A stretch of 64,000 bases of DNA from Macrostomum lignano. Its lineage: Eukaryota. Shown in pieces: positions 9,121 to 49,560 of the stretch; the stretch's first letter is position 1; each line of letters begins with the position of its first letter. The position numbers were made by a program, and so were the translations under genes. Below the pieces are notes generated by a model. That model worked only from the letters and a program-made list of their open reading frames with translations. It had not been told where the DNA came from and searched no databases. The stretch covers positions 49,693-113,692 of the forward strand of contig NIVC01000548.1 of NCBI GenBank assembly GCA_002269645.1. The letters run 5' to 3'.

Positions 9121-9429
9121 TTCTGCAAAGTGTAAATTCCAATCCCTTGTTTACTGGGATCCCAGACCTCTAATCCTAGATTCCTAGGATCTCGAACACT
9201 AACAAAAAGCTTGGATCTCAGGAAAGCATTAAATTGCTTTAAAAACATTAAACAACAATGTTTTTCCTGGCATTGCTCCTTGCTTCCACACTGCATTTTC
9301 AAAACTGTGATACAGTTAGGGGTCCCAATCCTGAGATCCAAGCTTTTTGTTAGTGTTCGAGATCCTAGGAATCTAGGATTAGGTCTGGGATCCCAGTAAA
9401 CAAGGGATTGGAATTTACACTTTGCAGAA
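9121..9429. mobile_element. MITE with ~103-bp terminal inverted repeats
   Basis: 9121-9223 is the reverse complement of 9329-9429 apart from a 2-nt indel. No TSD recognised. Confidence 0.8.
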
Positions 9430-25257: not shown

Positions 25258-28200
25258 ATGTCGGACCAAGCTGTGGATCTCTACGACGACCTCCCAACCG
25301 GAGGTGAAGTGTCATTTGAAGGCGGCGTCAGCGACGCGAAACATCGCCGTCTAGTGTACATTCGCGTCACCTGCTGGCTGACCGCTGACGCGTCTAGCTG
25401 GGCCGCGCTTCCAGAATCGTTAGTAGAAAGATTCGAAAATGACAGGCGAAGATTAGTCTCCGCTCGGGCATCGATGTTAGTATCCGATGGAGCTTCTTTA
25501 GCTAAACTGCTCGCCGCTAATTCCTCCAATTCGGCATCTGTAGAATCGCCAACTGAATTGTATTGCCGTTGGAGTCACGGTACAATCGATGTTGATTGTA
25601 CTGTTCCCATAGCAACGGTTGCTACGGTATCTAGTAGTGGTACTAATAGATCGAGCTGCGTTAGCGTTGGCATAAAAATCAATTATCTTTGTCCATTGTT
25701 GATTGGCGGCGATTTCGAGGACGATGAAGTCTGGCAAAGATTAGACGCTGGTCTGGTGGATTATGTCCGTCAGCTAGGCCTAACTGTTGCCAAGTGGCGC
25801 CGTCCTGTCGATACTAATTATTATCGATTAACCGAACCATTAGTTGGCGGCCGGCCCCGCCTGATTCGGGTGTTTTATCCCATTGGCGCAGACACAGACG
25901 AGTTGCGTCAGCTGCGTCACGGCTGGCACGAGCAGCTTGGCGTGCCGAAAACTCGACCAGTGTTCTGGCCAGCAATGCGACTGAAGTTCGCTGCAGACCA
26001 GCGGCTGTCTACTAGTGATGCTGGAAATGGAGCTGATGAAGATGAGTCTGGTAGGCTAGTGATTAATCCGCATTTGAAGGCCAAGCCGCAGCCGGAAACA
26101 GCGCCTTGGGTCACCCGGCTAGTGCAAGGAGATTATGCTTATTATCACTATGGCAGCTGCGGCTTCCACGACTCCGGCTGGGGCTGCGCCTACAGGTTGG
26201 TCTTGTTGAATTTGAATGGACTATCTCCGACTTCATGTCATCGATTCCGATCTCCGACTTCAGATCTCCGACACTTCACATCTCTGACACTCCATATCTC
26301 CGACACTCCATATCTCCGACACTTCACATCTCCGACACTCCATATCTTCGACACTCCAAATCTCCGACACTCCATATCTCCGACACTCCATATCTTCGAC
26401 ACTCCAAATCTCCGACACTCCATATCTCCGACACTCCATATCTCCGACACTCCATATCTCCGACACTCCATATCTCCGACACTCCATATCTCCGACACTC
26501 CACATCTCCGACACTCCATATCTCCGACACTCCATATCTTCGACACTCCATATCTCCGACACTCCATATCTCCGACACTCCATATCTCCGACACTCCATA
26601 TCTCCGACACTCCATATCTCCGACACTCCACATCTCCGACACTCCATATCTCCGACACTCCATATCTCCGACAATCCATATCTCCGACACTCCATATCTC
26701 CGACACTCCATATCTCCGACAATCCATATCTCCGACACTCCACATCTCCGACACTCCACATCTCCGACACTCCACATCTCCGACACTCCATATCTTCGAC
26801 ACTCCATATCTCCGACACTCCACATCTCCGACACTCCATATCTTCGACACTCCATATCTCCGACACTCCACATCTCCGACACTCCATATCTCCGACACTC
26901 CACATCTCCGACACTCCACATCTCCGACACTCCACATCTCCGACACTCCATATCTTCGACACTCCATATCTCCGACACTCCACATCTCCGACACTCCATA
27001 TCTTCGACACTCCATATCTTCGACACTCCACATCTCCGACACTCCATATCTCCGACACTCCACATCTCCGACACTCCACATCTCCGACACTCCATATCTT
27101 CGACACTCCACATCTCCGACACTCCACATCTCCGACACTCCACATCTCCGACACTCCATATCTCCGACACTCCATATCTTCGACACTCCATATCTCCGAC
27201 ACTCCATATCTCCGACACTCCATATCTCCGACAATCCATATCTCCGACACTCCATATCTCCGACACTCCATATCTCCGACACTCCATATCTCCGACACTC
27301 CATATCTCCGACACTCCATATCTCCGACACTCCATATCTCCGACACTCCATATCTCCGACACTCCATATCTCCGACAATCCATATCTCCGACACTCCATA
27401 TCTCCGACACTCCATATCTCCGACAATCCATATCTCCGACACTCCATATCTCCGACACTCCACATCTCCGACACTCCACATCTCCGACACTCCATATCTT
27501 CGACACTCCATATCTCCGACACTCCACATCTCCGACACTCCATATCTTCGACACTCCATATCTCCGACACTCCATATCTTCGACACTCCATATCTCCGAC
27601 ACTCCACATCTCCGACACTCCATATCTTCGACACTCCACATCTCCGACACTCCACATCTCCGACACTCCATATCTTCGACACTCCACATCTCCGACACTC
27701 CACATCTCCGACACTCCACATCTCCGACACTCCACATCTTTGACACTCCATATCTCCGACACTTCACATCTCCGACTCTTTATATCCTCAGAAATTCATA
27801 ACTCCGACAATTCATATTTTTGATACTCCATATTTCCGACGGGAAAAATAATCCTCTCCACAGATCTCTGCAAACAATCGTGTCTTGGTTGCGCCGTCGC
27901 GGTGTTATAGACGCCCCCGTGCCTAAACACGAAGCAATCCAACGAGCCTTGGTTGATCTGGGTGACAAGCCGAAGTCATTGATCGGATCTAGGCAGTGGC
28001 TTGGCGCTGTGGAACTGTCCTACGCGTTGAAAAGTTTAACCGGAGTTGCCGCCCGTCTGGTGCACGTGTCTCGGGGTGTTGACCTGCCTGAACAGGTGAG
28101 GTCTTTCATGAGCTTCTTCCTGAGCTTTCGAATTTGAAAATGGGACCAGATTGGGGAGCAGATAGCCAGATTAGGGAGCAGATAGCCAGACTAGGGAGCA

Positions 28201-31554: not shown

Positions 31555-34511
31555 ATGGAGCCGCAGCAGCTGAAGGATGTCGCGGCCGCCAAGATCGACG
31601 AGTCGCGCGAGCTGCTGCTCAGCGTCAGCTCCCGCCTGTGGCAGAACCCGGAGCTGGCGCTGGAGGAGCGAATGGCGCACCAGCTGCTGACGGAGACGCT
31701 GGAGTCGTCGGGCTTCAGCGTGACGCGGCACTTCGTGCTGGACACCGGGTTCAAGGCCGAGTTCGGGTCTGCTCGACCCCACATCGCCGTGATGTGCGAG
31801 TTCGACGCTCTGCCAGGCATCGGGCACGCCTGCGGACACAACCTGATCGCTGAGGTGGCGGTGGGCGCCGGTCTGGGCATCAAGGCGGCCATGGAGGCGG
31901 GCGGCCTGTCCGGCAGGGTCACCGTGCTCGGGACTCCGGCAGAGGAGGCACACGGCGGAAAGATCGACATGATCAGGTGCGACTACTAAGACTTGGTGGG
32001 GCCACGCACGGAACCTAGTCAATAGCATTTTCACTGTAATTGATCTTGCTCTGTTTCTTCAGTGGGTTGTGAAGAATTTATGACTTTAATAGGAAACAGT
32101 AATTATCGATAGTTTTAGAACCTAGAGGTTATGACATACTGGTACTGTGACAGGAAAAGAAGCATGTGCAGAAAATTAGGACACAACAACACAATCTTGG
32201 TGTTATTTTTTAAGCGGCACATTCTAAGAAATTCAATCTCGTTTGTTTTTATCATTGTATTCGGAAACTATCGCAATGCTACTTTCCCGTTAAAAACTTT
32301 ACCATGACAAGAATCGCTAAAGGGCCATTGCTAGTGCGGCAACTCTTGTGACTTTTTAACGACTCAAACGACTGCAATACTACGGAGAGGCGATTTTTGC
32401 GTCACAATTAGCGCGTCACGTCAGTTGCAGAACCGTAAAAGAGTTGCGAAAGAGTCATACAAGAATCGTGTTGGCGCTTACTATTGCTAGAGATACGACT
32501 CAATTCATCAAGCGATGCAATTGCGCTTCAAACGCAACTCGGTGACTCTACAGCGACTTTAGCACGCCTCAAACACGACTTTACGACCCCAGAGTCGTTA
32601 TAACGTTGCTCCAGCGTCGCCCTAGAGGCAATAAAATGCTTGAAGGTAATTCATGAATCTTGAGGGACTCGTTGACGACTTTTTGACGGCTTGTACCGGA
32701 ACATCTCATCGTTTTAGAGTCATTTAGAGACTCTTTCCTATTTTACTTATGTCAACTGCAATGACGCTTAAACGACCCTGGGACGCTTCTTGGCCTGGGT
32801 TTGATAGTCCTACATTCCTTAAAGCACAGAAATGTCTTTACTCGTACAGTGAGTACTAAGAAGCGCATGTCACACGCCGCTTAACACTGTGCAGATCGGC
32901 ATTCTTCACCGATGTGGACGTCGCAATGATGGCGCACCCCTACAAGCTGACTGTGGCTCGTCCGCGTGCGCTTAGCATCCAGGCATTCGACGTCACCTTC
33001 ACCGGCAAGGCGTCCCACGCTGCCGGCTCGCCCTGGGAGGGCCTCAACGCCCTTGACGCGGCCGTGACGGCCTACCAAAGCGTGTCGAACCTGCGGCAAG
33101 AGATGCGGCCGGACTGGCGGGTGCACGGCATCGTGAAGGAGGGCGGCCAGCGGCCCAACATCATCCCTGAGCGAGCTGTGCTGGGTACGCGATGATCCGG
33201 TTTAAAAATAAGTCATGTCCCTTTGATTTTTGTCGAATCCTAACATGCCTACTAATAGTAGAAAAAGCAAGCCATGTGAATCCTAAGTCCTGTGATGTAT
33301 AGGTCTCGTGAAATTTAGGTCCTATACAGTTTAGGTCTTATGAAGTTTAGTTTCTCTGAAGTTTAGGTCCTGTCAAGTTTTGGGTCTATGAAATTTAGGT
33401 TCTGTGAATGTTAGGTCTTGTAAAGTTTTTGGATTTGTAAAATTTAGGTCCTATGAAGTTCAGGTCCTGTGAAGTTTAGGTCCTATGAAGTTAGGATCTT
33501 GTGAAGTTTAGGTCTTGTGAAGTTCAGGTCTTGTGAATTGACCGTTCTAATTTGACTTTCGGCGATGCGATTTTTAGGTCTTGTATAAAAGCGCCCCATT
33601 GTATTTCTACCTCAGATCAGGGCGGTTAGTCTTTCACAGCGGAATTGACCTGTTGCCACTCTCTCGCGGTCAATGTCTTACCAGGTGACTCATCAAGATG
33701 CATTGGACATAGTACATAAAAGAGTCCCTGTTTTCCTGATTACAAAACTAAATGCTTCAAGTGCGCACCATATATTTCCAAGCCCTCCAAGTTTGATTGT
33801 CATTACAGGGTTTTCATTCTAGAAGTTGTTGACATTTAGGAATTTTTATTTACACTTTGCATATAAAATCACAAAGCAAGTAGAGTCCCAGAAAGGCCAT
33901 TTTACAGTTAAAATCACAAAGCGATAATAGCCCTAAAAGGGCCGTTTTAAAGTTCGAATCAATCATCCAAACAGATAAATAGACACTCCAAACGAAAGTT
34001 TGCCTATCCCAGATGTACCTGCTCTCCCGCAGAGTACTACATCCGCGCTCCAACAGACAAAGAACTCGCCGTTTTGCGTCGCAAAGTGGATGCCTGCTTT
34101 GACGCTGCCGCTCTCGCCACTGGCTGCAGTTGGCAGTCCGAGATAAACGGACACGCCAACAGTAACTTGATAACCAACGAGTCTTTGATTAAATTTTACA
34201 CGAAGAACTTGGTCAGATTGAATGAGCCTTTCCTAGAATCAGAGCCAGATGCGGTTATCGGCTCCACAGACATGGGCAACGTGAGCTACGAGGTGCCGTC
34301 AGTTCATCCAATGTTCTCAGTTGGTGGCCAGGCGGCTATTCACACACGCGATTTTGCTGAGCTGGCTGGCGACCCAGCTGCTCAGCCGCACGCCCTGACT
34401 CAGGCCAAGGCGCTGGCTATGACTGGCATCGATATTCTGACGCAGCCTGGCGTGCTCGAACAGATCTGGGAAGGTTTTCGAGCCGATATGGCCAGGCTGA
34501 AGGACTTTTAG
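31555..34511 (+). CDS. PM20D2: Peptidase M20 domain-containing protein 2, paralog 1 (396 aa)
   Basis: Exons 31555-31976, 32895-33184, 34033-34511. Motifs EFDALPGIGHACGHNLIA, GTPAEE, MAHP, GKASHAAGSPWEGLNALDA, GSTDMGNVS. Confidence 0.92.
32286..32799 (+). repeat. GACTC/GAGTC-rich interspersed element, ~510 bp, in PM20D2-1 intron 1
   Basis: Begins CCCGTTAAAA.C.TTACCATGAC and ends GGACGCTTCTTGGCCT, as do the copies at 34586-35925. Confidence 0.75.
33290..33540. repeat. 16-bp degenerate minisatellite (AAGTTTAGGTCCTGTG)
   Basis: About 15 units in PM20D2-1 intron 2. Confidence 0.85.
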
Positions 34512-34585
34512 CGCTATGTTTACTAGGAGTTCTTGGACAGCTAAAAGAAGTTGGTTTTCAAGATAGTTTCCTGCATAACGTTTCA

Positions 34586-35925
34586 CATTGAAAAGGTTAC
34601 TGTCACCAGAATCGCTAGAGTCACTGCAAACAACTCAAACGACTGTGGTGCGACAGATAAGGCTCAAACCAGTTGCAGAATTGTAAAAGATTCGCAAAAA
34701 GCCGTCCAAGAGTCGTTGTGTCAGAGTTTGACCTAAGTACACTACACGTCGATTCAATTTACTAAGTGACGCAACTCAGTGATTCTACGGCGACTCCAGC
34801 ACGCCTCAGATCTGACTCTGCGGCCCCAGTGTCATTTTAAAAGCGTCATAGGTCACTTGCGTCGCCCCAGAGTCGCAGACAATAAAACACTTCGAATTGA
34901 CTCTCACTCGTAGGCGACTGCCTCTTTTACAACTTTTTGGCGACTTGTACCGTGACATCTCGTCGTTTTAGAGTCGTCTAGAGGTCACTTTTTTCTTATT
35001 TTATCTATTATCTGCACAAACTGACTCTGAAACAACTCTGGGAGAAGCAACTGAGTCTGGGATGCTTCTTGGCCTACCCGATGAGAACAGCACCTAGGCC
35101 CAGAGTCACTTGCGTCGCCCCATATTCGTTTCAGAGTTGTTGCAGATGACACAGGTAAAATAAGAAAGAAGTGACTCTAAACGACTAAACCGACAGGATG
35201 TTACGGTACAAGCCGCCAAAAAGTCAAGCCGCCAAAAAGTCAAGCCGCTCAAGAATCGCCAATCCAATAAAACGCTTTGGAGCGTTTTATTACCTGCGAC
35301 CCTGAAACGACTCTGGGGCCGTAAAGTCGTGTTTGAGACGTTCTAGAGTCACTATAGAGTCACTTGATGAATCAGAGTCACATCTCTAGAGAAATTTCAG
35401 CGCCAACACTTTTACGGTTCTGCAACTAACGCAAAAGTCGCCTCTCCGTCGCATTGCAGTCGTTTGAGTCGTTAAAAAGTCACCAGAGTTGCCACAGAGT
35501 CACTAAAGTCACTAGAGAGTTGTTTGCAATGACTCTTTAGCGATTCTTGTCATGGTAACGTTTTAACGGGTCAAGTACACTAAATGGACAATCGAGTTGT
35601 TATAAATGCGAAATAAGATTCTATTTTACTATGTGAGGCAACTCAGTGATTCTAAAACGACTCTAGCTCGCCCTAGATACGACTCTACGGGGGCCCCCAG
35701 AGTCGTAAAAGCGTCCCAGCTGGTCACTTGCGTTGCCCCAAAGTCGCGGACAATAAAATGCTGCTTTAAAATGACTCTTGCATAACTCTTTGCTGACTTT
35801 TGGCGACTTGTACCGTGACATCTCGTCGTTTTAGAGTCGTTTGGAGTCTCTTCTTTCCAATTTTACCCATGTCATCTGAAACTACTCTGGGGCAACGCAA
35901 GTGACTCCGGGACGCTTCTTGGCCT
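34586..35925. repeat. Cluster of three GACTC-rich elements: forward 34586-35075, inverted 35096-35570, partial forward ~35630-35925
   Basis: Shared termini and internal blocks recognisable on alternating strands. Confidence 0.75.
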
Positions 35926-36902: not shown

Positions 36903-37202
36903 CACTCAGCAACATTGAAAAGTTTCCACCCTCGCGCCAGCCAGTTTCAAAAATGGTTTTTGTCGCCAGACTTGTGCCATAGACGATTGATGATTTCGTC
37001 AACACGCACTTGTGCCATAGACGATTGATGATTTCGTCAACACGCACTTGGGCCATAGACAAAAACTTGGGTCATGACGCCAGACAGCTCGAAGGAAACA
37101 GTCACATGGAGCAGACAGCAGCTGCTTAAAGGAGTCTAAAATCCACGTTCGCAACCGAACGCAATGGTTCGCCAAATGACCGACCTGGTACGAGCGCGGG
37201 CC
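36903..37202 (+). mobile_element. Left arm of an internally deleted Tc1/mariner element (TIR plus transposase codons 1-13)
   Basis: TA|CACTCAGCAACATTGAAAAGTTTCCACCCT terminus. ATG at 37164 gives MVRQMTDLVRARA, which continues in frame after the LTR element. Confidence 0.8.
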
Positions 37203-38066
37203 TGTAGAGTGTTCTACCTCCCGTTAAAAAAGGAAAAAAGAAGATAATCGTATAATACTACTATAAGTAAGTAAGTACACGCATGTGCGCCTAAGCTTTG
37301 AATGAATCACGCTACCAGAAAAAGATGTTACCAGAATAATACGCCATGAGCCATTTTCCCCTTTTAGCGCAACACGTGAATTGTCATGATACTATTTTGG
37401 ATCAAAAACTTGTCTATAAATACAAGCGATCTGAAGCGGTACCGGAGCCATTCTCCCCACGGAAGAGGAGCGCTCCGAAGAGGAAGCCTTAGGAGGACTT
37501 CCTGATCTACCAAGTCAATCGAGACTCGGTCGAGTTGTTGCGGTAAGCCTTCCTTATTTGCGCCCGTTGTGTTAGAGACGTCTCGCTCAAGTCTATTGAG
37601 ACTTGAGTCTAATTGAGTCTGTTGAGACTCTTGAGTCTGTTTAGACTCCATTGGTTGCAGTCTCCAGAAGGACTGCCCCTGATAGATCTTAGAGGACTAT
37701 CAGTGGTTTCCGGAGCTATACCTAGAGTGCATAGAGGCACTGCTAGAAGAAGGAGGCTTAATTTAGACCGCAGTTTGGCGCAGGGTACCCATTGTTGCTA
37801 CGAGGCCTCTGATTGGTCCTGACGGAAGATACCGGCCGGAAGAACTTATCGGAAGTACAAGAGGAACCAGGACCAGAGCAACTGAAGAATCAAGGCGCCT
37901 GATCTACGAGATCTACTGACAAGTTCCTAGCGAGAACTACTCAAGAAATTCAAATCCGGATTAAAGGTAATTGAATACCTTCGTTTGACTTACTGGGTTG
38001 CCTAGCTGTTGAGCTAGAAGTGATTGTTCCTTGATTATCGAAAGTCGGGTAATAAGGAACACATCA
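37203..38066 (+). repeat. 5' LTR (864 bp)
   Basis: TGTAGAG...ACACATCA; TATAAATA at ~37415. No difference from the 3' LTR seen by eye. Confidence 0.97.
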
Positions 38067-38068
38067 AT

Positions 38069-38080
38069 TGGTGATCTCGC
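38069..38080 (+). promoter_or_regulatory. Primer-binding site TGGTGATCTCGC
   Basis: TGG 2 nt downstream of the LTR. Complement ...GAGAUCACCA is most like a tRNA-Trp 3' end (tRNA identity is inference). Confidence 0.75.
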
Positions 38081-38775
38081 CCTCTCGGCACTACTCAAAC
38101 TTTGAGCAATAGCCCTGATCAAGCTATTGTAAAGTGACGACAGAGCGACTTCATTAATTTTGCGCGCACGTGTTAGAGTTAACACTTTTTAAGTCCGTTA
38201 CGTTTTGAAACTCGAGTAAAATTTTGGTGTACAGGTTTGAGCACCTGTCAAATTTGAGTACAGTTTGAGCACGCGTGTTAAATTTTGTTTTAACGAGCTC
38301 GAGCAAGTGTGAGTTAAAATAAAACCGAAATTAAATTCATCGGTACACTGAAAACAAACCGAAAATAAAAGAATCGTCGACGCAAAACAAACAAAAAATA
38401 ACTGAAACATTTTGCCGGCACAAAAACAAAACCGAAATTAATTGAAACTTCGTGGAGAGCGGAGTTAATTGACAAAAGAGAGAGAGTCAAAGAAGAGAAA
38501 AAGACTTTGCAAAACAAGAAGACAAAGCCCACTTCAACTTGAAGATACACTTTGCGGGACGCCGCATAAGTGCGAAATCAGCAAGCGAACAGAACAAGTT
38601 CATTTGAGGACAACCAGTGGCAGCAAGCCACACCGCATCCGAGGCCAGCGAATAACAAATCGACACCACAAGACAATTCGTTACAGTCGAGGTTTATTCC
38701 GAGGCAAACACCACACTGGACGATCCGTTACAAATCGATCCAGATCTTGAACTACCGTTCTATCCTATCAACAAC

Positions 38776-40247
38776 ATGGCGCGGCGCAATCCAACGGTAC
38801 ACAGAGACATCAAAGAAACGGTCGGTACCTTCTCGATGGAGAAAGATTTTAACACATTTGTCGACCACTTTGACCTGGTATGTAGGGAATACAACCTACA
38901 AAATCCAGAGAAGCACAGCTGCTGCCACCTCTTCTCCAAGGTACTGCGCGAGAAATTTACGGCAAGCTGGATGCGGCAACACAGCAAAATTATCCAGCAC
39001 TAATCATTCAACTGCGCGCGCATTTCAACCGTTGCGGCACAAACAGATCAGTGCTGCTGCACAAGTTGCATAACAGAAGGATGCAAGCAACAGAATCCTT
39101 CCTCGCCTTTGTGGACGATATCCGCCAGATAATTAAGGCACTGCATCAGCCACCGCTGCAAGCTGCGGACCAACCACCACTGGGAGCGGCAGAATTGGCC
39201 GCCAGAGAAAGACAACGATTGATGGATCGTGAACAAAACCTCATCCTGCACGTAATAAACAACGCACAGCCGTCACTTCGGGATAGACTTTTGCGTGAAA
39301 ATATCGAAACCGAAGAAGACCTTTTGCGTTGCGGAATGCAATGGGAAGCCAGTGCCCCATTAATGACGACAGGCAACAATGAAGTGCAGAAACTGACGCA
39401 GCAACTAAACAAGTTAATGCAGCACCAGACAGCTGCTATCGCCGAACAAAAAAGACGAAATGAACAAGCCTCAGCCAGATGTTACTACTGCGGACAAGAA
39501 GGACATTATCAGATTAATTGTCCTCATTGGTCAACAAGATACGACAAGCCGCGACAGATATTCAACAATCAGAAGCCGCAGAAACCATGGCAGCACTATC
39601 AAAATCGCCAACAACAAGGAATGAGACGCTTCGGAAATGATAGACGCTTCGGAAATAATGACCGCTCCGGAAATGATGGCCGCTTCGGAAACGAAGGCCG
39701 CTTCAGAAGTAATGGCTACAGGCCACGCAACGTCAGATACACACAAAGACAGCCGACGCAAGCAATGCCACGATACGCGAATGCCATCACGTACACACCG
39801 GAAAATGAACAGCAAGAACAGCAAGTGTTCACAATTGACGACTTGGAAATGGACTTCACAGTCCCGGAACTTGACATCAGCTTGATCGAAAAGAAGACGA
39901 CGCACGAGGACAACACTGACAACACAGAAGAGACGAATGAAACCGAAATGATCAAATTAAAAGAGACCACCGGAGACAGCAGAGAAAACAGGAAGAAAGT
40001 AAATCACAAGACAAGGGAGGAGGCGGAGAGCGACATCGGCAACGAAGAAAAGATGAAAACCGGCGAAGAAAACAACTATGAATCGACAACAGTGGATGAC
40101 GACAAAACGAGCATGAAAGACAAAGAAATGAAAGAAGAAGAAGAATGTAGAAGTTACGGCAACGACCACGACTGCGAGGTGCGTGATGACACGAACGACT
40201 ACCAAGCCGAAAGAGGAATGCAGGAAGAACGAGAGCGGAGAATCTAA
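38776..40247 (+). CDS. gag: Gag (one -1 frame break at ~38986-38989), with CCHC zinc knuckle, RFGN repeats and acidic tail
   Basis: Capsid-like FSMEKDFNTFVDHFDLVC; after the shift, NYPALIIQLRAHF...; CYYCGQEGHYQINC. Confidence 0.85.
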
Positions 40248-40294
40248 GTTCCGACAGCGATCAAGGCTACGAAATACAATGGAAAGATGAAGAA

Positions 40295-42562
40295 ATGGAA
40301 AAAGAACAGGTGAAAGAAAAGCCGAGTTCCGACAGCGACGAATGCTACGAGATCCGATACAAACGAAATGGTGAAGCCTATATTCAAACGGTCGACTACA
40401 AGACAGAGAAAAGATACCAAACGCAATGGAGTGAAACAACGGAAACATCGGAAGAAGCCGCAGACGAAGATAATGAAATAACCAAAAAGCAAAGCGAATC
40501 AGAAGCCTTCCGCCTGGATCAGCCAATGGAACAACCGAAAGAATATGATGCGGACATGGAAGATAACGAATGGCGATCGCAGCCAATGCCAGCAAGGACA
40601 ACGGCAAAATCCAAGAAGTGGAAAAACTGGCTATTCTGGATCATCGTGATACTACTGATAGCAGTAGTCGCCAAAGCAACGGCAACGGAAAAGCCAATGA
40701 TTTGTCCAACGGATGCGCATATCCAACCGATGATCTACAAGATACCAACCGACATCAAATGCAGTTACTTCAAGACAAACCAGACAAAACCAAAGAAGAT
40801 TACACTCGATCTCTACAAGGCTAACATCAAGAAGCATCGACAACACGGGATAGTATGCTTCAGAGACAAGCACCTGGTGGAAAAAGTTTGGCGCGGACAA
40901 TGGAACCGGATCCGATTTAAACAACATGAGCTACATGTGTCGCACGCGGAATGCCTACAATGGAATCAAACACTATTTTCAAAGGATGGTGAACTGGAAC
41001 CAGATGAGAAGGTCGGCAACGCACAGCTGTTCAGAACAAAGAATTCAGCCAACGGTCGATATATTCACTTCTTCGGAAAATGGAAAGAATATATGGCACG
41101 CAACAGCTACTTGATCAGAAATATTCCATTCTACTACAATCCGTACGAGAAAATGGAATCGTTACAGCTGCAACTAAGCGAATGTCGATACAGTGAAGGA
41201 TGGTGTCCAACGCCGATTCTACGGAAGGAAGAACTACACAGTCTACCACTGAGTCCAACATATCATCAAGACTATCGATGGCAGATTGAGCACAGAGCAC
41301 AATCACACTATGAGGAACCGTACAATTCACGACAATATTTCTTCGCATGGGAAGTAGAGCCGGAAATTGACTGCAAGCTTCAAAAGTATCACACAGTTGA
41401 AGGAGGACTACTGTCGAATACGTTTTTGGCAAAGCAGGAGACTTGGCCTGACGTTTCAAAAGAACCGGTTGAACAGGAACTCAAATGCAAGGATACGGAC
41501 AAGACGCTATTCATCTCGGAGCAAGAAATACCAGTCTATGTAAAGGATGACGACAAGCGAACCTTCCTGACGATCATAAACGGAACGTATCAACAACAAG
41601 AAAGGCGACGACGCGACATAGAACGTCCACGATTGGTGTCGAACCGACTACTGTCAGCAAAGATCACGGCTTTAGATCACAATCTGCATAACCAGCTAAA
41701 TCACCTACATCGATCACTGGTTCAGTTAACTTGCAAGATGCACGCAATCAACTTGAACTACGCAAGACAAAACTACTATGTCAACCCTACGATGACATTT
41801 CGCAAGATCACTGGAATGAGAGAGGTTCTGGCAATTCCGATATATGGACATCTCCTGATATACAAGTGCACGCCGATACAGCACTTTAACATCTTGCCGT
41901 CAAACACGTCAACAACCTGCTACGATAAGCCAAGGATTGAAGCGTTCTACGAAGGAAAACGAATTCAGGGATTCTTGGACACGGTACACAACATCATCGT
42001 TGGCACCGCAATACCGAGACCTTGCACCACGGCAGTAAACTACTATCAACTGGACAATGCACTACACGTCATCAAAACAACTGGAACGACAGCAAACGTC
42101 ACAGAACCGGAAGTAATCGTCGACGAAAACTACGACATGGAGGATTTGAAAATCCGATTCAACAGAACGAAGTATACGCCATTCGCCGATATCCAACTTG
42201 ACGAGATAACACCAGGATGGACGATCAACGACTTCTTGCAAGCGTTCATCACCCAACGCAAGATGATTCACCAGCTGTTCACAAGAAAGGACAAAGGAAC
42301 CGGGACAGGAAGATTTCCCGTCCTTGTTTCAATGGACAGCGCCATCAAATCATTTTGGACAAATAGCTTCTGGGAGCTGCTCAATGGAAGAGGCAGTCTC
42401 TATCAAGGATTCATCTTCTACGGTGCTTGCATTGTGTGGATTGTCACGGCAATCTTCATCATTTCATCGATCGTACGGTGCTTCAGTCAAACTTGTCCAA
42501 GAGCTAAGAAGACAGTGAATGCCATAATGCAAAGAACGACAACGGAAGCGACAACAGTTTAG
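40295..42562 (+). CDS. env: Env-like class III viral fusion glycoprotein (gB/chuvirus-G-like); frame open from 40190
   Basis: Hydrophobic signal segment WLFWIIVILLIAVVAKATA (40628-40684), Cys-rich ectodomain (CP..C, VS..EC, CRYSEGWC), furin site RRRR (41603-41614), VNPT..R and CYDKP.I motifs reminiscent of gB, several N-glycosylation sequons, TM at ~42407-42475. Confidence 0.8.
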   Translation: MEKEQVKEKPSSDSDECYEIRYKRNGEAYIQTVDYKTEKRYQTQWSETTETSEEAADEDNEITKKQSESEAFRLDQPMEQPKEYDADMEDNEWRSQPMPARTTAKSKKWKNWLFWIIVILLIAVVAKATATEKPMICPTDAHIQPMIYKIPTDIKCSYFKTNQTKPKKITLDLYKANIKKHRQHGIVCFRDKHLVEKVWRGQWNRIRFKQHELHVSHAECLQWNQTLFSKDGELEPDEKVGNAQLFRTKNSANGRYIHFFGKWKEYMARNSYLIRNIPFYYNPYEKMESLQLQLSECRYSEGWCPTPILRKEELHSLPLSPTYHQDYRWQIEHRAQSHYEEPYNSRQYFFAWEVEPEIDCKLQKYHTVEGGLLSNTFLAKQETWPDVSKEPVEQELKCKDTDKTLFISEQEIPVYVKDDDKRTFLTIINGTYQQQERRRRDIERPRLVSNRLLSAKITALDHNLHNQLNHLHRSLVQLTCKMHAINLNYARQNYYVNPTMTFRKITGMREVLAIPIYGHLLIYKCTPIQHFNILPSNTSTTCYDKPRIEAFYEGKRIQGFLDTVHNIIVGTAIPRPCTTAVNYYQLDNALHVIKTTGTTANVTEPEVIVDENYDMEDLKIRFNRTKYTPFADIQLDEITPGWTINDFLQAFITQRKMIHQLFTRKDKGTGTGRFPVLVSMDSAIKSFWTNSFWELLNGRGSLYQGFIFYGACIVWIVTAIFIISSIVRCFSQTCPRAKKTVNAIMQRTTTEATTV

Positions 42563-45500
42563 AACTAACAGAAACTGCACATTGTGAGGTTCAAGGGCAA
42601 CCGACACTAGCAACGCGGCTATATCCATCGATTCCGACAACACCAACGGCACCAAGGATACAACCACCCAACTATCAAGCAGAACAGCACGAGCCAAAAT
42701 GGCCGGAAAACTACGTCTGTACGCTACACGCCGAGATTGGCAAAGCAATGGCTCAGGTCATTGTCAACAACTTGCCATGTCGAGCACTACTGGATTCAGG
42801 CAGCTCGATCACAGTCATCTCGCAACAATTATGCAACAAGCTACGACTCGCGGTACGACCAGCAGCAATCGCAGTTGCAGGAGCAGGAGGACATTCACTC
42901 AACATCCTAGGAAAAGCAGATATCGACTTGAAAATTGCTAATAAACAGCTGACGGTCCCGACGTACATCATCGACAGACTACCAAACCAAGACGTCATCG
43001 TTGGAATCGACACGTTCAAGCAGCTTCAACTACCATTGACCTTCGACTTCAACAAGCAAACGTTTAGGATCGACACGGTGGAGCAACCGCTGATCAACCA
43101 GATTCGAGTACTACCGAAAGTAACTCTGCAGCAAGATGTCATTATCCAGCCTGAAAGCGCATGCTGGGTCAGAGCGAAAACGACCAGCGCGGCAGATGAA
43201 GCAATGATATTTGATCCACACAGGAGAGTCACGGCAAAACATCAAATCATGATGCCTACGGCACTAGTGCTGGTTGCAAAGGATAAGCAACTGCCAGTAC
43301 AAATCTTCAACCCGAACACAGAAACGGTTCATCTACGACAAGGAATGTGCATCGGTCATCTCAACACCCAAGCATCGGTTATGCTGATTGAACAAGCGAC
43401 TCCACGACTAACAGAGGAAGAATTTCAAAAGAAGATCAATTTGGATGACAGCCCGATTACGGAACAGCAAAAGAGGAAAGTTCGACAGCTGTTGTGGAAG
43501 TACAACGAAGCCTTCTGCCATCATGATTACGACATCGACGAGCCAAGGACATCAAACAGGAAATCAAACTTCTGCCGCACACGGAACCAATTCAGTGCAA
43601 GCCGTACCCGATCGCCAAGCATCTGCAACAACACTTTGACGAAATCATCGATAAAATGCTAAAGCACGGCATCATCAGCAAAGCTATTTCGGCTTACTCC
43701 TCACCGTGCCTACTGGTACAGAAGAAGGAGACAAACGAAAGACGACTCGTATGCGACTTCAGACTGTTGAACAAGTACATACCGACGGATCAGCAAAGCC
43801 TACCGAAGATCTCCGAACTACTAGCAAAGCTCAACACGGCAAAATTGTTCACGGTGTTCGACCTACGTCATGGATTTTGGCAAATTGAAATCGAGAAAGA
43901 GTCACGACAGTACACGGCTTTCAAAACCTACAATGGACAAGTATACGAGTACAATCGATCGCCGATGGGACTCAGCAACAGCCCAGCAACGATGAGCCGA
44001 CTAACAGCATACATGCTTGCAGGATGCACGAACCTGTTGCACTATGTTGACGACATCTTGGCCCACGGAGAAGACTTCGACGACTCTATGAAGCGACGGA
44101 GAAGGCCCTCGCGCTTATACAACGTCAAGGTCTGAAGCTACAACCAACTAAATGCAAATTCTTCCGAGACAACGTGCGTTACCTGGGACATCAGGTGACA
44201 GCCAAAGGAATCTCACCGGACCCAGACAACGTGGAAAAGGTGAAGAAGTTTCCTACGCCAACCAGTATAACGAAGGTCCAATCATTCCTTGGACTTGCGC
44301 AATACTTCAGGAAGTTCTTACCTAACTTCGCAAAGACAGCAAAGCCACTGTACGACCTGCTCAAGTTCGACAAATGGAAGCAAGACAACTGGACACAGAG
44401 ACAACAGGAAAGTTTCGACGAAATCAAACGACAGCTGACATCAGACGCACTGCTACAGCATCCGGACTTCGACAAGCCCTTCATCATCGAGACAGACGCC
44501 TCAGGAACGGGACTCAGAGCAGTCCAACTACAGGAAACCGAGGACAAGAAGGAACGACCTATTGCTTACGTCAGTCGAGCACTCAAACCAAATGAGACAA
44601 AGTGGTCAGCTACGGAACGAGAGCTACTAGGAGTCTTGTTCGCCCTGCGACAGTTTCATTACTACATCTATGGTTCTCCAATACAGACGATAGTACGCAC
44701 GGATCATGCACCATTGACCTACGTCGTAACTACAAAAGGACAGACCAACAACCGACTCATCAGGATGACACTCAAGATACAGGATTACAACTACAAACTC
44801 GTCTACAAACCAGGAATTACCAACAAAGCCGCGGACGCCCTGTCAAGAGCCTATGAAGTCAACGCCATTCATCCAATCCCTAACATCAAGGAGTTGGTGG
44901 ATGAAACCGAGCGCGACAACTTCTACCAAGCGGTTAAAGACGACGACAAGAACATCAAACTTAGCCCATGGAACGAAAATTCCTACGCAAGCAACGACAA
45001 CACCTAACAATCAATAAGTCACGGCTCTACTGGATGAGCGACAATAAACCTAAGATCTACGTACCATATTCGTTTCGGCAAGCAATTCTCAACGAGCTGC
45101 ACGACAACCCACTCGCTGGACACCTGTCGGCCGCAAAGACCATCGCGAGAGTGGAACAATACTACTTTTGGCCAACTATGTACGGCGACATCAAGCAGTA
45201 TTGCAACAACTGCCATTCATGTGCTGCATCAAAGACAGGACGACGACAGAAACCGCAGCTACAGTCCATTCCGAAGTCGACTACAATGGACTGTCTAAGC
45301 ATCGACATCACCGGACCACTGCCACCGAGCTGTCTCCAGGGCATCGCCTACACCTACATCCTAACCGCCTTGGACATCTTCTCGAAGTTTGCTATCGCCA
45401 TACCGATACCGGACATCACAGCTCAGACAGTGGCAATGAGTTTCTTCAACGAAATCATTTGCAAGTACGGCACGCCGAAGAACCTCACATCGGACAACGG

Positions 45501-46254
45501 ATCGCAGTTTACATCGCAGCTGTTTCAGCAAGTCGTAAGGATTCTCAACATTACGCAGATCTACACATCGACCTACAATCCGAAGGCAAACATGGTTGAA
45601 AGGTTTCACCGCAACCTGCACGAGATGATTACACACTTCGCGCACCAACAGCCGGAAGACTGGATCATCTACCTGCAATCTGTAACAATGGCCTACAACA
45701 GCGCTATTCATCGATCAACGGACAATACGCCATTCTTCCTAATGTTTGGACGAGACTTCCAACCGCCGAATCTGCTCGCACAGCAATTGCTACCATCGCA
45801 GTACGTGGAAGTACCGACTTCCATTCAGAAATTTGTCACGCAGCTACACCTCGCATGGAAGATCGCCAAGCACAACATTGACAACCAGGTGGCTCTGACC
45901 ACCGGCAACGACGCGAGATCGACAACCCTGACGGCCGGCGACATCGTTTACCTACACTACCCGCCGCAGCAGACGCATAAACATGCACAGAAGTATAAAG
46001 GACCCTATCGAGTGGTCCAACTAACGTCACCGACAACGGCACGCCTGGCTAATGTACAAGATCCACATCAGCACCAGTTCTACGTACACATTCATCGACT
46101 AAAGAAGATCAACACTGACACCGCGACGTTTCTACCGACATTAGACAACGCGGATCGCACGCGTTCAACGAACCGCCACATCGCGACAAAGCACGAGGAG
46201 ACTCAAACGACAGATGTGAGCCAGCCACATGGCTACAACCTACGACCACGCTAG
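42508..46254 (+). CDS. pol: Pol: late-domain-like linker, protease, RT, RNase H, integrase (three -1 breaks at ~43537, ~44081, ~44965)
   Basis: LLDSGS; YSSPCLLVQK, RLVCDFRLLN, DLRHGFWQI, YVDDIL; TDASG, TERELLG, RTDH; H..GH..C..C zinc finger, DITGP, SDNGSQF, VERF, KYKGPYRV. Confidence 0.93.
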
Positions 46255-46374
46255 AGTTTCGAGAGCAACCCCGTGTAGTGACCGGGATAAAGAATAGCAC
46301 TACAGCTTCGCAAGCTTGTCGTAAAAGGCGACTAATCCGAGCGACACAAAGACAGCGACAAATTGACAACAATT

Positions 46375-46749
46375 ATGAGCAACGCACTGTCGAAACAGGC
46401 GCCCCAGCCTCAGCAGCTATATGACTGCCCGATATGTTTAACTGATGACTTGGCTGTCAAGCCACCGACTATTTGCATCAACGAACATAAAGTTTGCGGA
46501 CAATGTTTAAGCGATTCACATTATATTCAGCCATGGCAGAATTGTCCCCTCTGTAGAGATAGTTTGCGACAATGTGCCTATTGTTATTCTTGGCGCACGT
46601 TTCAATATTGTAACCACCAACATTTTATTTGCATGCACTGTTTGAAGCAAACCGCTAGTAGGGGCGTTATAGGATGCCCCTTATGTAATAGTATGCCGCG
46701 AGACTGCACGTTTCGAAAGTGGTGTCGGATCAAACCTGATGCCACTTGA
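46375..46749 (+). CDS. Accessory ORF with two tandem C3HC4 RING-like fingers (124 aa) inside the LTR element
   Basis: CPIC..CINEHKVCGQC..CPLC followed by CAYC..CNHQHFICMHC..CPLC; intact ATG to TGA. Confidence 0.8.
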   Translation: MSNALSKQAPQPQQLYDCPICLTDDLAVKPPTICINEHKVCGQCLSDSHYIQPWQNCPLCRDSLRQCAYCYSWRTFQYCNHQHFICMHCLKQTASRGVIGCPLCNSMPRDCTFRKWCRIKPDAT

Positions 46750-46914
46750 TGTCTACGCGATATTCGAGTTTTGACCGCAATATGTACTGAAAAGTTTTTA
46801 GAGTTTTGACCAAACCCTCGCTTCACTAGACGCGCACAAAATCAATTGTTTATTTCCTATATTAACTGATCACCACAGAATTTTATTGTTAAAACTCGGG
46901 ACGAGTTTTTTCGT

Positions 46915-46926
46915 AAAAAAGGGAGA
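46915..46926 (+). promoter_or_regulatory. Polypurine tract AAAAAAGGGAGA
   Basis: Ends 3 nt upstream of the 3' LTR. Confidence 0.85.
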
Positions 46927-46929
46927 TTT

Positions 46930-47793
46930 TGTAGAGTGTTCTACCTCCCGTTAAAAAAGGAAAAAAGAAGATAATCGTATAATACTACTATAAGTAAGTA
47001 AGTACACGCATGTGCGCCTAAGCTTTGAATGAATCACGCTACCAGAAAAAGATGTTACCAGAATAATACGCCATGAGCCATTTTCCCCTTTTAGCGCAAC
47101 ACGTGAATTGTCATGATACTATTTTGGATCAAAAACTTGTCTATAAATACAAGCGATCTGAAGCGGTACCGGAGCCATTCTCCCCACGGAAGAGGAGCGC
47201 TCCGAAGAGGAAGCCTTAGGAGGACTTCCTGATCTACCAAGTCAATCGAGACTCGGTCGAGTTGTTGCGGTAAGCCTTCCTTATTTGCGCCCGTTGTGTT
47301 AGAGACGTCTCGCTCAAGTCTATTGAGACTTGAGTCTAATTGAGTCTGTTGAGACTCTTGAGTCTGTTTAGACTCCATTGGTTGCAGTCTCCAGAAGGAC
47401 TGCCCCTGATAGATCTTAGAGGACTATCAGTGGTTTCCGGAGCTATACCTAGAGTGCATAGAGGCACTGCTAGAAGAAGGAGGCTTAATTTAGACCGCAG
47501 TTTGGCGCAGGGTACCCATTGTTGCTACGAGGCCTCTGATTGGTCCTGACGGAAGATACCGGCCGGAAGAACTTATCGGAAGTACAAGAGGAACCAGGAC
47601 CAGAGCAACTGAAGAATCAAGGCGCCTGATCTACGAGATCTACTGACAAGTTCCTAGCGAGAACTACTCAAGAAATTCAAATCCGGATTAAAGGTAATTG
47701 AATACCTTCGTTTGACTTACTGGGTTGCCTAGCTGTTGAGCTAGAAGTGATTGTTCCTTGATTATCGAAAGTCGGGTAATAAGGAACACATCA
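46930..47793 (+). repeat. 3' LTR (864 bp)
   Basis: Copy of 37203-38066 at offset 9727. Confidence 0.97.
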
Positions 47794-48132
47794 GGCCATT
47801 GGCATGCTGGACGCTGGGATGTCCATCCGAGCTGTTGCTAGCCAAATTGGGCGGTCGCACACAGCAATCCGCAAACTGCAGATCAAGTGCAGAGAAACGA
47901 GCAGCGTGGTGCTCACTCCTTTGACGACTCCTTTGAAGGCGAATCCGACAGCACTGCCTAGTAACAGGAATGTAGCCCTGCATCGGTTGGAGTGCACTTG
48001 CTCTTTGCTGTTCCTTTGCTTCGTTCGAATCCGGATTATATATTTGTCTATGGCTCAAACCACAAATATCTCCACCCACCAAAACGTTGACCCTTCGCGC
48101 GCTAGGGTGGAAACTTTCAATGTTGCTGAGGG
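47794..48132 (+). mobile_element. Right arm of the internally deleted Tc1 element
   Basis: IGMLDAGMSIRAVASQIGRSHTAIRKLQIKCRETSSV (Tc1 N-terminal HTH), then the DDE region is lost. TIR AGGGTGGAAACTTTCAATGTTGCTGAGGG; the right TA is not preserved. Confidence 0.8.
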
Positions 48133-48278
48133 GCTCGTATTAATACCTGTATGAAACTTTCAATTTGTTTTTTTTTGTCTTCTGATCTAATATTTTTTTT
48201 ACTTCTGAAGTTTACCTAGCTTAATATCAGTTACGAGTACTATTAGTTTACATGACTGCATTTTCAGCGACTGCTCTG

Positions 48279-49560
48279 ATGAATCCGCAGCAGCTGAAGG
48301 ATGTCGCTGCCGCCAAGATCGACGAGTCGCGCGAGCTGCTGCTCAGCGTCAGTTCTCGCCTGTGGCAGAACCCGGAGCTGGCGCTGGAGGAGCGAATGGC
48401 GCACCAGCTTCTGACGGAGACGCTGGAGTCGTCGGGCTTCAGCGTGACGCGGCACTTTGTGCTGGACACCGGGTTCAAGGCCGAGTTCGGGTCTGCTGGC
48501 GCCGGGCGGCCCCACATCGCCGTGATGTGCGAGTTCGACGCTCTGCCGGGCATCAGGCACGCCTGCGGACACAACCTGATCGCCGAGGTGGCGGTGGGTG
48601 CCGGTCTGGGCATCAAGGCGGCCATGGAGGCGGGCGGCGTGGCCGGCAGGGTCACCGTGCTCGGGACGCCGGCAGAGGAGGCACAGGGCGGCAAGATCAA
48701 CATGATCAATGCGGGTTTTTTCAAAGACGTTGACGTCGCTCTGATGGCGCATCCAGACCGCATGACAACGGTACACAGCGCTCACTTGAGTCTGAGTAGT
48801 ATTGAGGTTATCTTCACCGGCAAGGCGTCCCACGCGGCCGGCTCGCCCAGGGAGGGCCTCAACGCCCTTGACGCGGCCGTGACGGCCTACCAGAGCGTGT
48901 CGAACCTGCGGCAGCAGATGCGGCCGGACTGGCGGGTGCACGGCATCGTGAAGGAGGGCGGCCAGCGGCCCAACATCATCCCTGAGCGAGCTGTGCTAGG
49001 TCAGGTTATTAGTGCAATCTGTAGTGCGGATTAAAAGTGCAAAACTAAGCTCTTGCATCTTGGTGACGCAGCAAACGCTTCAACTTCCAGAGTACTGCAC
49101 CCGAGCTTCAACTGGCGGCGACTCGCAACTGCTGCTCAACAAAGTGAAGCAATGCATGCATGCGGCTGCCATGGCAACCGGATGCGAGTGCCTCATCTCA
49201 GAGTCGGAACCTGAGTACAAGAATGTGATTCCCAATCGCGCTCTTGCTGGCGCCTACAGTGCGAACTTGAGAGCTCTGGGTGTTGAGCACACTCAGCTGT
49301 ACCCGGAGCCCACCGGCTCAACCGACATGGGCAATGTGAGCTACGAGGTGCCGTCCATTCATCCGATGTTCTTCATCGGTGGCGACACTGCCACGCATAG
49401 TGCGGGATTTGCGGTGCTGGCCGGAGCTGCTGAGGCGCAGCGTTACGTCCTGGAGCAGGCCAAGGCTCTGGCGATGACCGGCATCGATGTGCTCACGGAG
49501 CCTGCGCTGGTGCAGCGATGCTGGGAAACTTTTCAGGAGGATCTGAGCATCTACGGCTAA
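48279..49560 (+). CDS. PM20D2: PM20D2 paralog 2 (396 aa)
   Basis: Exons 48279-48999 and 49091-49560. Same M20 motifs, with GIRHACGH and GSPREG variants. Confidence 0.9.

Follow-up and report, generated by a model that had tools for sequence, protein, structure and literature searches.

Elements with an HSV/gB-type envelope (HSV, herpes simplex virus) and the gene order GAG-ENV-POL have been described from Nematoda, Bryozoa and Platyhelminthes, in which they are non-monophyletic (Chary and Hayashi, eLife 2026, PMC13524379). In the sections of that paper drawn on here, all of its elements are classified as Ty3/gypsy with hidden Markov models (HMMs), host-specific clades are found, three open reading frames (ORFs) are spoken of, the ectodomains are flanked by a signal and a transmembrane segment or by two transmembrane segments, transmission is called elusive outside Drosophila, and for the placing of env before pol in nematode elements reference is made to Sacco et al. 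2022. The main text gives no match to 'fused', 'frameshift', 'polyprotein', 'single ORF' or 'RING', and polyprotein topology is undiscussed in those same sections (PMC13524379). The part of its supplementary file 1 used here lists Platyhelminthes_Rhabditophora_Mlig_errantivirus_2, with a long terminal repeat (LTR) of 864 nt, a start-to-start distance of 9,727 nt, an env typed HSV/gB and 16 copies of at least 98%. We examined a 64,000-nt stretch of the flatworm Macrostomum lignano (assembly GCA_002269645.1, contig NIVC01000548.1, positions 49,693 to 113,692 of the forward strand; hereafter the window, numbered from its first letter), in which an LTR element at 37203-47793 has the same LTR length, spacing and primer-binding site (PBS) as the listed element. 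The LTRs of a sibling copy (L032) start at 0 and 9727, as listed, and the window element is of the same family.

The nematode element NERV reportedly joins gag-env-pro-pol in a continuous ORF and has additional ORFs and a Nyamiviridae-like glycoprotein. The window family is like it in having env before pol and, if NERV is as reported, in its continuous frame, and Nyavirus G is the top viral fold match in the window family; its host is a flatworm whereas that of NERV is a nematode, so the family is NERV-like in its working but is not NERV. Drosophila errantiviruses (gypsy, ZAM) share with it a Ty3/gypsy Pol and an envelope gene, but their order is gag-pol-env, their env is F-type and is expressed from a separate spliced mRNA. 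Atlas virus of the Belpaoviridae is likewise a single polyprotein that includes Env (2,828 aa) and has identical LTRs (PMC9094657), but in the parts of its descriptions used here (PMC9094657; bioRxiv 10.64898/2026.03.22.711591) it is a Bel/Pao element of the order Gag-Pol-Env with a class II fusogen and no enzyme after the anchor, and the window family has neither that order nor a class II fusogen. Cer1 was dropped as a relative, its extra ORF after pol not being an envelope according to the part of PMC10309623 used. No further description of a fused Gag-Env-Pol polyprotein was found in the literature searched, a search whose coverage left out most subscription journals. The flatworm family and its gene order are already published in the sections of PMC13524379 drawn on, and the single-frame design is very probably also already known.

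We conclude with considerable confidence that the window holds a Ty3/gypsy LTR element whose unbroken sisters encode Gag, a gB-like Env and Pol in one 2,498-aa frame, that this copy's breaks likely reflect one-base losses introduced during assembly, and that the encoded chain is predicted to cross the endoplasmic reticulum (ER) membrane twice.

The Gag-Env-Pol frame in sibling copies and relatives

A scan of the window gave seven overlapping + strand frames that cover 38656-46254 (38656-39003, 38886-40247, 40190-42562, 42508-43662, 43527-44135, 44051-45007 and 44965-46254). As the initial annotation had noticed, all six steps between them are -1 (6/6 in the same direction would have a coin-toss chance of 1/64), and it had proposed that they hide one Gag-Env-Pol polyprotein of ~2490 aa; natural siblings bear this out for the family. 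A 401-nt gag/env probe was run on the animal's own genome, where 40 places were scored out of 70 candidates and all 40 matched, and the 39 sibling stretches (the scored places minus the window) were retrieved for comparison. A stop-free single frame of 2,535-2,538 codons was present in five of them (L018, L020, L021, L036 and L042; n = 39), and from the gag ATG the unbroken protein was 2,498 aa (four copies) or 2,495 aa (one copy), in the order Gag-Env-protease (PR)-reverse transcriptase (RT)-RNase H-integrase (IN). L020 and L021 have an identical 5 nt of visible flank and may be one insertion. An independent database protein (P0002) has env through IN in one frame; a word-index homologue search returned only 2 same-species proteins.

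Divergent relatives had the same arrangement. A 167-aa env probe gave 135 genome matches, with open frames of 2,458-2,866 codons at 95%, 70%, 35% and 26% identity. Twelve stretches were retrieved, five of which (L050, L051, L052, L053 and L054) kept all of gag, env, PR, RT, RNase H and IN within a single frame, with RT identities of 100%, 82%, 40%, 40% and 39%, respectively; the other seven were broken or partial, three joining gag-env-PR, three env-PR or more of Pol, and one gag-env. When 12 long proteins out of 40 database representatives were scanned, a single chain with a sign of gag, env and a complete Pol was seen in P0004, P0026 and P0028; P0012 and P0016 carried a knuckle, env and parts of Pol, and the nematode protein P0030 env-PR-RT-RNase H-IN in one frame. 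Between unbroken copies (three divergent pairs), dN/dS was 0.05-0.20 for gag, 0.05-0.09 for env, 0.11-0.26 for the tail and 0.03-0.05 for pol, and the acidic linker between Gag and Env was the least constrained part (0.39-0.58). Judged by such substitution ratios, the env ectodomain is under purifying selection. Separately, more than one protease-like segment was seen around the gB-like env in P0028 (~1186, 1489) and P0033 (~321, 1804, 1977).

Alternatively, Gag, Env and Pol could each have a frame of its own, with programmed -1 frameshifting, splicing or internal initiation as the link between them. Frameshifting is common in Ty3/gypsy elements, and the window does have overlaps of 58 nt (gag/env) and 55 nt (env/pol), as measured before, on which this arrangement could draw. 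The initial annotation had seen no canonical X XXY YYZ heptamer at the env/pol overlap; we found none in register in any of the six overlaps and one off register in the first. A single frame is seen in most siblings, in the short-read contigs (below) and in families whose RT identity is as low as 39%, and three identical-looking steps lie inside pol, one of them within RT, all of which argues against separate frames. For the family, programmed -1 frameshifting is refuted by unbroken siblings, short-read contigs and divergent single-frame families, and we give the separate-frame arrangement as a whole almost no weight.

Frame breaks in the window copy

The window copy carries nine frame-changing indels, against six noted at first. 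Five of the six earlier break positions agree with sibling differences: sibling alignments were one base longer than the window near 40229 (36/40), 42545 (29/35), 43536 (34/35), 44080 (33/35) and 44964 (32/36). The first, placed at ~38988, has to be moved, since 38/39 sibling alignments equal the window in length there and the difference lies near 38913, where 38/39 are one base longer. At control sites, 34-38 of 35-39 sibling alignments had the same length as the window. Three extra one-base losses, missed by the initial annotation, lie inside env near 41434, 41447 and 41463 (33/35, 35/35 and 35/35 alignments longer); they cancel, so that ~10 codons of the window's seemingly intact env stand in the wrong frame. 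The number of window letters unseen in any sibling was 0, private substitutions among near-full copies came to 2, and the 5' and 3' LTRs are identical (864/864 nt), as had been claimed. L017 is net zero at env/pol in the length comparison only owing to adjacent indels, and L031, L035, L038 and L044 were rejected as short copies, their seeming shortness being a two-piece alignment artefact where frame comparison shows the long form.

We scored 32 near-full copies (31 siblings and the window, truncated or deleted siblings excluded) against the unbroken L018, and counted 131 one-base losses at 103 sites versus 3 one-base gains. Per 100 runs, losses numbered ~1 for single bases, 4-6 for runs of two and 8-18 for runs of three. 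Up to 33 breaks fell in a single copy, and the loss-biased pattern extended across many contigs. Long-read deletion errors, earlier named as the likely cause, are thus supported by inference from the loss bias, the run-length trend and the nine indels set against 0-2 private substitutions; nine frame-changing indels with few private substitutions and identical LTRs fit long-read consensus error better than decay. The breaks in the window are likely one-base losses made in assembly.

Short-read contigs were taken from 4 of 24 listed runs (X1, X2, X6 and X13, from four studies); they pool dozens of copies and lose rare variants, and therefore inform on the family and not on this locus. Among the matches listed, the longer form made up all depth at 38912, 43536 and 44964 in 4/4 runs, at 40229 in 3/4 runs and at 44079 in three runs, and at 42543 it stood at full depth in X2 and X1, while the X6 contig ends there. 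The X13 contigs over 42543 and 44079 were one base longer with a single gap. At the family level, the contigs give mainly the longer form at the breaks. No splice-like joint within the ORF is listed in the three runs that may be RNA; rare forms drop from contigs, so this is silent on splicing. The sole internal joint, from 42252 to 43908 in run X2, corresponds to the deletion of sibling L031.

Several observations weigh against assembly loss as the source of the breaks. The reads come from dozens of copies and are unassignable to this locus; the short form recurs at two linker sites (5 and 6 of 32 copies), which are the top two of the 103 loss sites; the four copies that are short at env/pol (L039, L040, L043 and L049) are mutually nearest neighbours; run X13 has the longer form at 40229 in 35.7 of 77.2 depth; each of the nine sites in the window falls in a run of only 1-3 bases, which speaks against long-homopolymer slips; and there is no indel in the window's two LTRs (1,728 nt), where ~2 would be expected at the ORF rate (hand arithmetic, P ~0.13).

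Some of these points would suit a family that is single-frame but in which this insertion is dead, the nine one-base losses, or some of them, being truly present in it: the reads are not locus-specific, the LTRs are free of indel errors, and four of the nine window loss sites also occur in other assembled copies. In neutral decay, however, substitutions are normally more numerous than indels, and the window copy, with nine indels, 0-2 private substitutions and identical LTRs, shows the opposite; the same loss bias across many contigs, with as many as 33 breaks in one copy, likewise speaks against a dead insertion, which we consider improbable.

Others could mean that the short linker forms are real inherited variants that make Gag alone or Gag-Env alone, are copied in trans and supply surplus structural protein. 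If true, the short linker copies would be a division of labour among insertions, replacing frameshifting or splicing. The top two loss sites fall one in each inter-domain linker (the two linkers combined being 14% of the ORF), the nearest-neighbour relation of the four short copies holds around env/pol (permutation P 0.05), and the mixed depth of X13 at 40229 would fit as well. Yet short and long forms occur on otherwise identical haplotypes (distance 0), and L041 (long) and L043 (short), whose 5' flanks agree over 12 nt, appear to be a single insertion. Short copies also tend to be error-rich (median of other breaks 8 and 5 versus 1; P 0.06 and 0.11), 16 further sites recur, so that hot spots are general, and 3/4 runs give only the long form at 40229. 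We judge inherited short forms to be quite improbable, and assembly loss remains our preferred account of the breaks.

Envelope fold, predicted topology and Gag

A 27-row env alignment matched a herpesvirus gB profile with E 1e-17, and the env model built from the alignment (pLDDT 72.8, pTM 0.47) matched gB structures in Foldseek with E 2e-21 and a TM-score of ~0.4, and Nyavirus G and other negative-strand virus glycoproteins with E 4e-24, Nyavirus G being the top viral fold match. As modelled, the fusogen is class III and gB-like. A single-sequence fold of the window's ectodomain reached a pLDDT of 29.9 and was unused. In the window, Pfam gave the order CCHC knuckle, PF24664 (viral fusion glycoprotein; weak, E 1.4e-4, below cut-off), a protease, a two-part RT, an RNase H and an integrase, which places env between gag and pol, as in the initial annotation. 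The family thus has three features of an HSV/gB-type errantivirus: a class III gB-like env fold (at the TM-score given), signal and transmembrane flanks by hydropathy only, and multiple near-identical copies, five of them intact among the 39 siblings.

Each of the five unbroken proteins shows exactly two hydrophobic peaks of 19 residues, close to residues 620 and 1216, which in the window correspond to a predicted internal signal sequence (40628-40684, +) and a predicted transmembrane anchor (42407-42475, +) on either side of the gB-like ectodomain (40685-42406, +). Both segments peak at 2.4 on the Kyte-Doolittle (KD) scale; the first has a net charge of +5 before it and -1 after it, the second 0 before and +3 after. 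By the positive-inside rule, under which a positively charged flank marks the cytosolic side, the +5 on the Gag side of the first segment and the +3 on the Pol side of the second would put Gag and Pol in the cytosol. The earlier proposal of two membrane crossings, with Gag inside, Env outside and Pol inside, is supported as a prediction by these two peaks and their flanking charges. Within the ectodomain there are 12 cysteines and 6 sequons, together with RRRR at residue 948 of the unbroken protein, a furin-type site that lies at 41603-41614 (+) in the window. In 10/10 same-genome frames a positively flanked signal-like segment preceded env and a positively flanked anchor followed it, with no strong extra peak between. 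Candidate (-3,-1) signal-peptidase sites fall at residues 633, 635 and 637, and such a candidate was present in 9/9 frames checked. On the other side, the topology is a hydropathy prediction only, several distant database proteins have a weak second segment (KD 1.1-1.7), and P0030 is without a clear signal.

A flavivirus polyprotein carries a cytosolic capsid, an internal signal, a luminal glycoprotein and cytosolic enzymes in one chain, whereas alphavirus structural polyproteins lack the polymerase. The likeness to flavi- and alphaviruses drawn in the initial annotation therefore stands for topology and not for the fusogen, which is class III, and it is weaker for alphaviruses; flaviviruses have a class II fusogen, many crossings and an RNA replicase, and the comparison with them is an analogy only.

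Gag (38776-39827, +; break near 38913) comprises ~235 aa before the knuckle, a putative capsid region, then a single CCHC knuckle at 39480-39527 (zf-CCHC, E 2e-4) and a basic region. Gag profile matches were mostly to nucleocapsid, with one Gag match (E 2e-4) over positions 102-247 and a weak DUF1759. The ~235 residues leave little room for a matrix domain; both the capsid domain and the lack of a matrix are weakly supported, which also counts on the doubtful side. An acidic linker of ~267 aa (39828-40627, +; 29% D+E; break near 40229) separates Gag from the signal, and an Env tail or linker of ~90 aa (42476-42753, +; break near 42545) leads to the protease.

Under the mechanism we propose, Gag and the acidic linker would be made in the cytosol, and the internal signal near residue 620 would insert with its N-terminal side cytosolic and be cut by signal peptidase on the luminal side. 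The ectodomain would fold in the lumen, be glycosylated and be cut at the furin-type site, and the second segment would stop transfer, so that Pol would be made back in the cytosol as an Env tail. The cleaved signal helix may keep Gag at the membrane in place of a matrix domain and the Env anchor may do the same for Pol, with the element's protease later freeing Gag and Pol and particles budding into the secretory pathway. In one frame, Gag, Env and Pol would be made one to one, a poor ratio for capsid building, and this stoichiometry likewise tells against the scheme.

Layout of the element, its copies and its surroundings

The element begins with a 5' LTR of 864 nt (TG...CA, 37203-38066, +), which has 0 mismatches to the 3' LTR (864 nt, 46930-47793, +), and is bounded by a 4-nt target-site duplication whose left copy (37199-37202) recurs at right (47794-47797). 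A tRNA PBS lies at 38069-38080 (+), its reverse complement being the PBS listed for Mlig_errantivirus_2, and a polypurine tract (46915-46926, +) is seen in the letters directly before the 3' LTR; TG...CA LTRs, target-site duplication, PBS and polypurine tract are all hallmarks of Ty3/gypsy LTR elements. No tRNA gene was found within the window.

Pol comprises an aspartic protease (42754-43011, +; Asp_protease_2, E 2e-10), an RT with YVDD (43719-44197, +; breaks near 43536, upstream, and 44080), an RNase H (44390-44788, +; RT_RNaseH_2, E 5e-35; RT_RNaseH, E 4e-33) and an integrase with H2C2, core and GPY/F-type motif running to the stop (45061-46254, +; Integrase_H2C2, E 6e-21; rve, E 8e-15; with a break immediately upstream, near 44964). 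The GPY/F-type motif was read off the window translation of the integrase tail. RVT_1 matches in two pieces in the window versus one in an unbroken sibling, where Pfam gives the order PR-RT-RNase H-IN; that order alone is compatible with Bel/Pao too.

Downstream of the integrase lies a Cys-rich, RING-like ORF of 124 aa (46375-46749, +; zf-RING_2, E 2e-3, below cut-off), with a pN/pS of ~0.2-0.3. It is kept in most siblings (77-99%) and also in L050 and L051, and was not found in the other 10 divergent stretches; a more distant RING-like ORF (28-29%) stands further on in L033 and L044. For the most part, viral RING proteins make up its Atlas look-alikes (0.88-0.92), among which arenavirus Z (0.88) is a lead only.

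Copies of the family vary in structure. L038 and L044 share a deletion from ~40806 to 44740, with most of env and pol gone, and L031 lacks ~42252-43899, a joint also present in run X2. Two or more copies lie ~10 kb apart on several contigs (L015/L033 on C3033, L011/L037 on C2121, and on C1130, C87 and C669), and on C2447 (L040 and L043) two units are separated by 9,729 nt, the spacing that a tandem with a shared LTR would have. Across 41300-41830 the window copy is a mosaic in which pieces that match the commonest read form exactly take turns with pieces like those of a minor subfamily, and a 9-nt indel near 41604, beside the furin-type site, divides the siblings 23 versus 12. The mosaic pattern among copies suggests recombination. 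Contigs of X6 and X13 join across the entire element (37199/47795), and X1 and X2 have matching loose ends, so an empty site exists; the flanking ORF at 47783-48154 resembles what we take to be a Tc1/mariner helix-turn-helix, and the empty-site form may come from other copies of the flank repeat.

Elsewhere in the window are a perfect short hairpin element (9121-9429), a tandem array with strong GC skew in which a 16-nt unit is repeated at least ~97 times (~26100-27900), long inverted repeats resembling DNA transposon ends (32280-35577, ~3.3 kb) and a host M20 peptidase gene that occupies two frames, with a short intron near 49000 as the probable cause of the split (48225-49560).

What is new here is direct evidence of one frame in flatworm elements down to ~40% RT identity, together with a conserved two-crossing layout. 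As a caution, most copies look frameshifted in this assembly, and three-ORF annotations can be artefacts. With such a layout a retroelement could use its own envelope, rather than a matrix domain, to tether its capsid and polymerase to the membrane, and a single-frame family has to cope with a one-to-one output of Gag and Pol. As the family is young, multi-copy and present in a laboratory flatworm, both the tethering and the Gag:Pol ratio can be tested.

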